A DNA stretch of 64,000 nt from Candidatus Sungiibacteriota bacterium (GTDB lineage: Bacteria; Patescibacteriota; Minisyncoccia; Sungbacterales; JACQCQ01): contig JACQCQ010000002.1 of the NCBI GenBank assembly GCA_016201505.1, positions 144,903 to 208,902 on the forward strand, read 5' to 3'. Shown here in pieces: positions 30,846 to 30,944 of the stretch (position 1 is the stretch's first letter; the number at the start of each line of letters is the position of its first letter). The notes beneath the pieces were generated by a model. That model saw nothing but the letters and a program-made list of their open reading frames with translations, was not told the origin of the DNA and did no database searches. A program made the position numbers and the translations under genes.

Positions 30846-30944
30846 ATATACAAATCAAATTGTCTACCGACTACAGACTGCCGACTACAGCACCGAAATT
30901 AAAAGCGCAGTAGTCAGTGGACTGTAGACTGTAGTCCAACAAAA
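30846..30944 (+). promoter_or_regulatory. structured leader element, groEL copy (about 90% identical to the recA copy)
   Basis: ATATACAAATCAAATTGTCTACCGACTACAGACTGCCGACTACAGCACCGAAATTAAAAGCGCAGTAGTCAGTGGACTGTAGACTGTAGTCCAACAAAA immediately 5' of the ATG. Confidence 0.55.

Follow-up and report, generated by a model that had tools for sequence, protein, structure and literature searches.

Start-adjacent stem-loops built from tandem heptamers at groES, groEL, recA and dnaK of a Sungbacteria genome, and their possible role as processing or stabilising leader hairpins

In a 64-kb stretch of the genome of a Candidatus Sungiibacteriota bacterium (contig JACQCQ010000002.1; the whole stretch is called the window, and its coordinates are used below), four related stem-loops of 60-85 nucleotides (nt) can be read directly just 5′ of the ATG codons of groES, groEL, recA and dnaK. 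An earlier note on this DNA had pointed to related elements at these four sites, and all of them are present and form a genuine four-member family. We read them as paralogues of one leader cassette peculiar to this species, which consists of an A/U-rich prefix, a long stem-loop and an A-rich start region devoid of a Shine-Dalgarno (SD) sequence. We tentatively propose that they are processing or stabilising leader hairpins, which would be sites of RNase III / RNase J processing or protection and would insulate the A-rich SD-less start; we put the probability of this reading at about 0.45.

The four copies, their position and their start regions

Period-7 autocorrelation and predicted RNA folds were computed for each copy. 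G(A/T)CTACN heptamers in tandem make up the 5′ arm, and complementary NGTAG(A/T)C units the 3′ arm, after which come an A-rich stretch and the ATG. The period-7 word structure is significant in four of the four copies (p ≤ 0.005). The stems span 60-76 nt, enclose a loop of 15-17 nt and are nearly perfect, with 21-27 predicted pairs in each copy; the mismatches recur about every 7 nt because both arms are made of tandem heptamers. The predicted folding energies range from -22 to -34.6 kcal/mol (z about -2.8 to -7.5), and every hairpin stops 2-15 nt before the ATG.

The groEL copy (30862-30937, + strand; ATG 30945) has about four heptamer units per arm and fills the groES-groEL spacer. Its fold is predicted at -26 kcal/mol (z -3.0 to -3.3), and it scores 99.7 bits with the covariance model built from the four copies. 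It is preceded by the A/U-rich single-stranded prefix AATATACAAATCAAAT (30845-30860, +), recognised by comparison with the relative L138, and followed by the SD-less start region AACAAAA plus ATG (30938-30947, +), whose unpaired probability is 0.68-0.86 between 15 and 65 °C. The recA copy (43769-43837, +; ATG 43845) lies between a HTH_25 gene (stop codon 43746-43748) and recA. It gives the most stable fold (-33.5 to -34.6 kcal/mol, z about -6 to -7.5), and carries its own prefix AATATAAATCAAAT (43754-43767, +) and an A-rich start region, AATAAAA plus ATG (43838-43847, +), recognised by reading and folding. The perfect hairpin and the identity of about 90% with the groEL copy that had been claimed for it both hold: GACTACTGC-N15-GCAGTAGTC is exact, and the alignment of the two copies from AATATA to the ATG, 83 columns long, has 4 mismatches and 7 gapped positions. 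An independent Logan assembly of SRR12113410 matches the window letter for letter over 4781 nt, recA copy included, which shows that this copy is not an assembly artefact.

The dnaK copy (55570-55629, +; ATG 55638) lies between grpE and dnaK in the hrcA-grpE-dnaK operon (79 bits, -22 kcal/mol, z about -3) and is followed by the A-rich start region GCAAAAAA plus ATG (55630-55640, +), again recognised by reading and folding. The groES copy (30447-30521, +; ATG 30524; -28 kcal/mol, z about -3, 80 bits, period 7 at p ≤ 0.005) comprises a main stem-loop (30447-30507) and a small one (30508-30521) that stops 2-3 nt 5′ of the ATG.

Within the 64 kb, clusters of G[AT]CTAC / GTAG[AT]C words are found at these four sites only, and the common 26-nt 3′ arm has 3 matches for 0.00 expected. 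The covariance-model search that had been suggested for the family, run with filters off, gives the four copies 79-100 bits, the next match in the window scoring 11 bits. The element is thus restricted here to chaperone genes and recA. No Rfam family matched at the gathering threshold or at E ≤ 10, save for chance miRNA-like hairpin matches.

The position of the elements agrees with what the earlier note had described. The groES copy lies 3′ of a sigma-70-type promoter, TTGACG-18-TATATT (30376-30405, +; 10/12 consensus positions), and of a controlling inverted repeat of chaperone expression (CIRCE), TTAGCAGTC-N9-GAGTGCTAA (30404-30430, +), which overlaps the -10 box; it is therefore in the 5′ untranslated region (UTR). 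The groEL, recA and dnaK copies fill co-directional spacers (groES-groEL, HTH_25-recA and grpE-dnaK, respectively). Judged by position, the four elements lie in transcribed leader or intercistronic RNA. The gene orders, by Pfam, are uvrC / uvrA - HIT - groES - groEL - lemA - rpoB - rpoC - ftsK - HTH_25 - recA (the encoded RecA being MBI3627314.1) and hrcA - grpE - dnaK - (308-aa open reading frame, ORF) - dnaJ.

Several simpler identities were considered for the hairpins. They are not CIRCE/HrcA operators (TTAGCACTC-N9-GAGTGCTAA), as had already been stated: their words differ, and genuine CIRCE sites stand apart from them at 30404-30430 and at 54145-54171 (+). The latter is a CIRCE-like operator, TTAGCGCTC-N9-GACTGCTAA, which overlaps the hrcA promoter (TTGACG-16-GATAAT). 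Nor are they intrinsic terminators, since the stems are followed by CAAAAATG-type A-runs and no U-tract; a terminator scan flags none of them on the + strand, and the canonical terminators of the window carry T-runs, unlike the four hairpins. An internal promoter in the A/U-rich prefix, with a start at the base of the stem, was not found by a promoter scan there, and a TAATAT box seen in the prefix by eye fits recA alone.

No SD sequence precedes the four start codons, as had been noted before, and an SD core is found before 5 of 39 window genes, which is the background level. A TANNNT box lies 4-10 nt 5′ of the start in 12 of the 39 genes (~31%) against 9% in the background. The lack of SD enrichment and the TANNNT boxes together indicate that the genome is SD-independent and partly leaderless, and suggest that leaderless mRNAs may be widespread in this Sungbacteria genome. 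In partition-function folding from 15 to 65 °C, the region from -10 to +12 around the AUG has a mean predicted unpaired probability of 0.44-0.86 across the four copies. None of the hairpins covers the AUG, and even at 65 °C the prediction keeps the stems folded.

The leaders of relatives and the same words in other genomes

At groES-groEL the window was compared with the relatives L121, L122, L123/L124, L137 and L138, in which synteny is kept and GroEL is 78-86% identical. Their spacers measure 75-111 nt. A stem-loop is predicted in this spacer in the window and in all five relatives, 5-22 nt from the ATG and with z from -1.6 to -9.3. The weakest is that of L121, whose long-range helix is 0.5 kcal/mol above the minimum free energy. 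Over all the leaders of the window and the relatives, the distance from the hairpin end to the start codon is about 2-24 nt, mostly 5-9.

The sequences of these leaders are unrelated. The covariance model of the window matched none of the relatives' groEL leaders, and pairwise scores between orthologous leaders are at noise. Each leader is built from other words, mostly of period 7-9: GACAAGT words in the groEL leader of L121, TTTCTAA / TTTAGGA words in that of L123, and ACGAAT / ATTCGT words in the leaders of L122, L137 and L138 as well as in the rpoC leader of L123; the rpoC leader of L122 uses CACCAAAAG words with period 9. Within a genome the paralogous leaders are nearly the same: the groES and groEL leaders are 100% identical over 69 nt in L122 and ~93% identical in L138. 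Position and fold are thus conserved at the groEL leader, and the sequence has been turned over.

A trace of this turnover is visible in the window itself. The first 19 nt of its groES-groEL spacer (TAATCGCTAATATACAAAT, groES stop codon included) are identical to those of L138, and its prefix AATATACAAAT aligns with the L138 hairpin arm AATATACGAAT, which indicates that the groEL hairpin was replaced in place. The groEL prefix (30845-30860) is best read from this alignment as a remnant of an ancestral hairpin arm like that of L138. The recA copy bears the same remnant prefix, which points to the groEL leader as the source from which prefix and hairpin were copied together. The HTH_25-recA spacer of L134, L135 and L136 measures 12-42 nt and has no hairpin. 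By these comparisons the recA copy is a lineage-specific, recent insertion of ~85 nt, and the bare recA genes of the relatives indicate that it is not essential. At a more distant Parcubacteria locus (L126) the groES-groEL spacer is 29 nt long and without a hairpin. RmuC-based synteny is not conserved in the relatives around the recA and dnaK leaders.

The words of the window's element were also sought elsewhere, with a loose 3′-arm pattern scanned over species-representative genomes. Among the matches listed, most are plain (CTGTAGA/T)n arrays in many phyla, especially Bacteroidota. Hairpins of the same words lie before rpsJ in a Patescibacteria metagenome-assembled genome (MAG; L102), before rpsM in a MAG labelled Gammaproteobacteria, a label that may be wrong (L117), in a Saccharibacteria MAG (L114) before the gene of a response regulator and, within the L28-L33 operon of a Bacteroidaceae MAG (L029), to either side of DUF4295; a shorter hairpin or array precedes nusA in an Uhrbacteria MAG (L061). 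In these other phyla the hairpins are 7-28 nt from the start codon. The presence of the same words at rpsJ, rpsM, nusA and DUF4295 indicates that the word family is not tied to stress genes. The earlier note had held that a random scatter of copies over non-stress genes would refute its reading; in the window the copies keep to chaperone genes and recA, and it is in other genomes that this restriction breaks down. A strict-pattern scan of metagenomes matched six loci, all unrelated.

A processing or stabilising role, its rivals and known systems

What leads us to a processing or stabilising leader helix is the combination of a start-adjacent position kept across species whatever the sequence, a duplex of 20 bp or more, a single-stranded A/U-rich prefix and an open, A-rich start in an SD-less organism that encodes RNase J (19548-21353, - strand, by the annotation of the window proteins). 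The 21-27 pairs predicted per copy reach the length of at least about 20 bp needed by an RNase III substrate. In the mechanism we envisage, the cassette would be transcribed within the mRNA and act in cis, post-transcriptionally. The helix would tie up the upstream RNA and so leave the start codon single-stranded for SD-independent initiation. RNase III could cut the double-stranded RNA, or an endonuclease the A/U-rich prefix, and either cut would create a structured 5′ end blocking the 5′-to-3′ exonuclease RNase J. The abundant distal cistron (groEL, dnaK, recA) would then be expected to be expressed independently of, and above, the upstream cistron. What the sequences show is the anatomy, the position in transcribed spacers, the position and fold that are kept as the sequence turns over, the absence of SD sequences and the RNase J gene; that the hairpins are cleaved, stabilise the mRNA and affect its translation is what we infer. 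An mRNA-stabilising or processing 5′ structure, the former being one of the functions put forward earlier, stays in front. On its side are the strong stems, the open AUG, the transcribed position, the fold kept in the relatives, and the same-word hairpins before rpsJ, rpsM and nusA of other Patescibacteria and around DUF4295 of the Bacteroidaceae MAG.

Several results weigh against this reading. No RNase III gene is encoded within the 64-kb window. Double-sided covariation among the four copies is seen at 0 of 17 pairs, which reflects copies that are too similar, and a covariation test in homologues is not applicable in its classical form because the homologues are unalignable. Over 15 hairpins, the mean difference in stability between sense and antisense RNA is +1.2 kcal/mol, with no systematic advantage of the sense strand, and the sense folds hold 27 G-U pairs for 33 in the antisense folds; with no strand bias, selection acting specifically on the sense transcript is not visible. 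Furthermore, recA of the relatives does without the hairpin, and the element is absent in the window from the genes of L25, L31, S2, EF-Ts, S6, S18, L21, SSB and RpoB/C. We also considered that the TAG heptamers might act as a trap closing all three frames before the ATG; this holds in 6 of the 15 leader hairpins and fails in 9.

The main rival is that the elements are DNA palindromes, either repetitive extragenic palindromic (REP)-like or akin to miniature inverted-repeat transposable elements (MITEs), or products of heptamer slippage and template switching. They would spread and be homogenised by duplication or gene conversion and be tolerated in the rare long spacers of a compact genome, any effect on expression being incidental. 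This is unlikely in our estimate but far from negligible. Paralogues that are 90-100% identical within a genome when orthologues are at noise, the recent ~85-nt insertion at recA from the groEL leader and the equal stability on both strands are all what it would predict. Moreover, heptamer arrays are common in leaders of the window (fba, prfA, a penicillin-binding protein (PBP) gene, uvrA), (CTGTAGA/T)n arrays are widespread in many phyla, and heptanucleotide repeats are reported by Mrazek et al. 2007, as cited in PMC4679880, to be the commonest class of long simple repeats in most prokaryotic genomes examined. However, four of the four copies adjoin start codons, and no copy follows a gene or separates convergent genes. 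Six of six clade genomes have a hairpin in the groEL leader despite full turnover, which would need repeated insertion at one and the same place, or selection. The recA insertion, compared with the empty sites of L134, L135 and L136, shows neither the target-site duplication nor the terminal inverted repeats that a MITE should have. REP elements and the bacterial interspersed mosaic elements (BIMEs) that they form are 20-40 bp long, of high copy number, mostly 3′ or intergenic, end in a GTAG/CGTC tag and are linked to a REP-associated tyrosine transposase (RAYT) gene (PMC3733652). The likeness lies in genome-specific, imperfect extragenic palindromes that are part of transcripts, are able to stabilise mRNA and undergo concerted evolution (PMC3733652). 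None of the distinctive traits (size, copy number, 3′ location, tag, RAYT gene) is found in the window: the stems span 60-76 nt, GTAG is repeated inside the 3′ arm, the four copies in 64 kb are all 5′ of genes, and no Y1_Tnp match turned up among the window proteins scanned.

Three other explanations were weighed. The hairpin could be a structural mark of the start site, the helix some 5-10 nt 5′ of the AUG docking on the 30S platform in the place of the SD:anti-SD duplex, or recruiting an RNA-binding protein such as S1 or Csp, and in either case marking internal starts. The mostly short distance between hairpin and start (also 7-28 nt in the other phyla), the SD-less genome, the copying of the A-rich start region along with the cassette and the heptamer repeats near start codons of the SD-poor Beggiatoaceae (PMC4679880) agree with it; however, the distance to the AUG varies and most genes, among them the ribosomal-protein genes of the window, start without a hairpin, and we hold this reading improbable. 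An operator or RNA target of a stress regulator co-controlling groES, groEL, dnaK and recA, as the earlier note had envisaged, fares worse and is quite improbable. The choice of genes in the window (chaperones and recA, and not some ten translation and transcription genes) and the words kept among copies despite divergence are in its favour. Yet the orthologous hairpins of relatives are unrelated in sequence, their recA is bare and in other genomes the same words stand before rpsJ, rpsM, nusA and the gene of a response regulator, while a 7-bp unit spacing with a 15-17-nt loop is atypical of a protein operator and CIRCE is already in place at groESL and hrcA-grpE-dnaK. Least probable of all, and hardly credible to us, is the RNA thermometer of the same note, a structure that would open in the heat and let heat-shock genes be translated. 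It would suit three of the four genes, which are heat-shock genes, and the periodic mismatches of the stems. In silico, however, the stem does not reach the AUG or its flanks, and the AUG region is unpaired at every temperature. The predicted gain in accessibility of the start region from 15 to 45 °C is just 0.05-0.11 for groES, recA and dnaK and 0.14 for groEL, and the unpaired fraction of the hairpin region goes from 0.28-0.37 at 15 °C to 0.36-0.50 at 65 °C, where 50-64% is still paired. There is no SD site to sequester, the ROSE and fourU models of an Rfam scan do not match the four copies, and analogous hairpins stand at rpoC, rpsJ and rpsM in other genomes.

Several known systems resemble a processing or stabilising leader helix in part. 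In Haemophilus influenzae hmw1A, a heptamer repeat of the 5′ UTR forms one arm of a long hairpin, and its cutting by RNase III raises expression (PMC12721329). A transcribed tandem heptanucleotide repeat within a long, imperfect 5′-UTR hairpin is common to both cases, and in hmw1A it is the structure and not the sequence that matters (PMC12721329). There, however, the left arm alone is repetitive, the right arm is G-rich and 54 nt separate the hairpin from the ATG; the number of repeats is subject to phase variation, and the gene encodes an adhesin and has an SD site (PMC12721329). Unlike hmw1A, the present elements have heptamer arrays in both arms and a stem that adjoins an SD-less AUG, and there are four paralogous copies of them. 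In Staphylococcus aureus cspA, RNase III cleavage of a 5′-UTR hairpin stabilises the mRNA and improves initiation and 30S binding; the resulting 5′ stem resists RNase J, 5′ hairpins being a block to RNase J1, and the half-life rises from <2.5 min to >16 min (PMC3386247). cspA likewise has a long leader hairpin in an RNase J organism, and the outcome proposed here, a protected 5′ end and better initiation, would be the same. For B. subtilis, Homuth et al. 1999 and Hambraeus et al. 2002 are said to have described 5′ stem-loop stabilisers and the processing of the dnaK operon. The cspA and B. subtilis systems concern stress or chaperone mRNAs, as here, but are single-gene, conserved in sequence and SD-dependent, whereas cleavage of the present hairpins is predicted only. 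The intercistronic RNase III sites of phage T7 are likewise long hairpins between cistrons, where they divide the messages and fix the 5′ terminus of the mRNA downstream. They differ in belonging to a phage and E. coli RNase III and in having arms without repeats.

A parallel in position comes from Beggiatoaceae, where TAACTGA heptamers form direct repeats near SD-less start codons; similar arrays are found in some cyanobacteria and Bacteroidetes (PMC4679880). In both cases tandem 7-nt units lie a few nt from SD-less starts, and a role in translation is suspected for the TAACTGA repeats (PMC4679880). The four copies show this arrangement significantly (p ≤ 0.005). They differ in that they are not direct repeats only: the TAACTGA sets use one direct heptamer, number hundreds per genome and have no complementary arm, whereas here both arms are complementary, inverted heptamer arrays that form a stable helix. 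The short tandemly repeated repetitive (STRR) sequences of cyanobacteria are comparable heptamer repeats.

Other repeats and the meaning of the locus

The window holds other repeats near gene starts. At 1728-1790, (TTTATAA)x3.4 and (TTCGGAT)x2.6 direct arrays run up to the ATG (1791) of the class-II fructose-bisphosphate aldolase gene, fba. In its (TTCGGAT)n array (1761-1790), which resembles the TAACTGA-type leader repeats, degenerate units continue and there is no complementary arm. On the - strand, 7001-7090 carries (TTAGGAT)x4.3 and a weak hairpin before a release-factor gene (5952-7001, -), and at ~12090-12158 a 15-bp GAATCTG/TTAGATT hairpin with a TATAAT box in its loop precedes the PBP gene (12159). 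An (AGAATTA)x4.7 array (26757-26789) lies inside the apparent 5′ end of uvrA, in frame with ATG 26745; the annotated start of uvrA, or its N-terminus, may be unusual. A second palindrome family, CTATAAAT(N)CGATAGACT|AGTCTATCG(N)ATTTATAG, is perfect or near-perfect in three copies (15687-15740, 24962-24997 and 54090-54127). In front of hrcA the palindrome runs into TTTTT and is scored as a terminator of 17 pairs, and this family may represent a REP-like bidirectional terminator.

Word families turn up again at different loci in different genomes. The TTAGGAT/TTTAGGA words of the release-factor leader also build the groEL leader hairpin of L123, and the groEL leader of L121 (9907-9935) shares GCGACAAG(C/T)AACAAG(T/A)GACAAG with a site 3′ of uvrA in L123 (8586-8695). 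In L029 (2830-3150, -), two hairpins of GACAACC/GGTCTGT-type heptamers flank the 52-aa DUF4295 gene, 3′ of rpmB-rpmG, and many Bacteroidota loci of the scan have side-by-side heptamer arrays near gene starts. The opposite polarity, a GTAG-type array, a gap of ~20-70 nt (mostly ~60-70) and a CTAC-type array, was seen in L003, L025, L028, L051 and L060 (Pyrinomonadaceae) and in L005 (Nitrospiria); several contigs of soil Acidobacteria share this arrangement, which may be an element of another kind, flanked by repeats.

Among the other genes of the window are a 23S rRNA intervening-sequence protein gene (PF05635; 1324-1734) between pfkB and fba, the ORF of 308 aa without Pfam match (57533-58459) between dnaK and dnaJ, which overlaps both, and a very large ORF (60625-64000; >1125 aa) with an N-terminal HTH_17 domain that runs past the window end. 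A 94-nt tRNA-Lys(ctt) called by ARAGORN (16505-16598, -) has no Rfam support, lies inside an ORF (15783-16871) and is probably a false positive. In L138, an insertion (7544-9132) with an rve-family integrase and a ParE-like toxin pair separates uvrA from groES.

Leader hairpins themselves are of an already known kind. What appears new is that both arms are made of tandem 7-9-nt words, that a fixed position goes with sequence replacement and homogenisation within a genome, and that the lineage is an SD-independent one of the candidate phyla radiation (CPR). The literature searched gave no description of such tandem-word leader hairpins, and almost nothing on translation starts or mRNA fate in CPR/Patescibacteria: SD, leaderless mRNAs and CPR were not brought together as a focus, and anti-SD and Patescibacteria were not found mentioned together. 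A broader idea, distinctly unlikely as it stands, is that tandem-word hairpins are a general expression signal of SD-independent bacteria (Patescibacteria, perhaps Bacteroidota) that is read by structure. The helix would be kept at a constant place immediately 5′ of selected internal starts, its sequence being free between species and homogenised within the genome, and its reader might be the ribosome platform, where it would replace the SD:anti-SD helix, or RNase III making short-leader mRNAs.

In conclusion, the element would be an ordinary one if it were merely a tolerated palindrome. Here the most abundant chaperone genes of an SD-less genome bear a leader helix of their own, and the observations bear on the copying of leader cassettes between genes, as from groEL to recA, and on why heptamer repeats go with start codons, a link that has long lacked an explanation; the broader idea of a general signal would, if true, account for the clustering of such repeats at the start codons of SD-poor phyla. 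The locus offers a testable handle on post-transcriptional control in an uncultured phylum.

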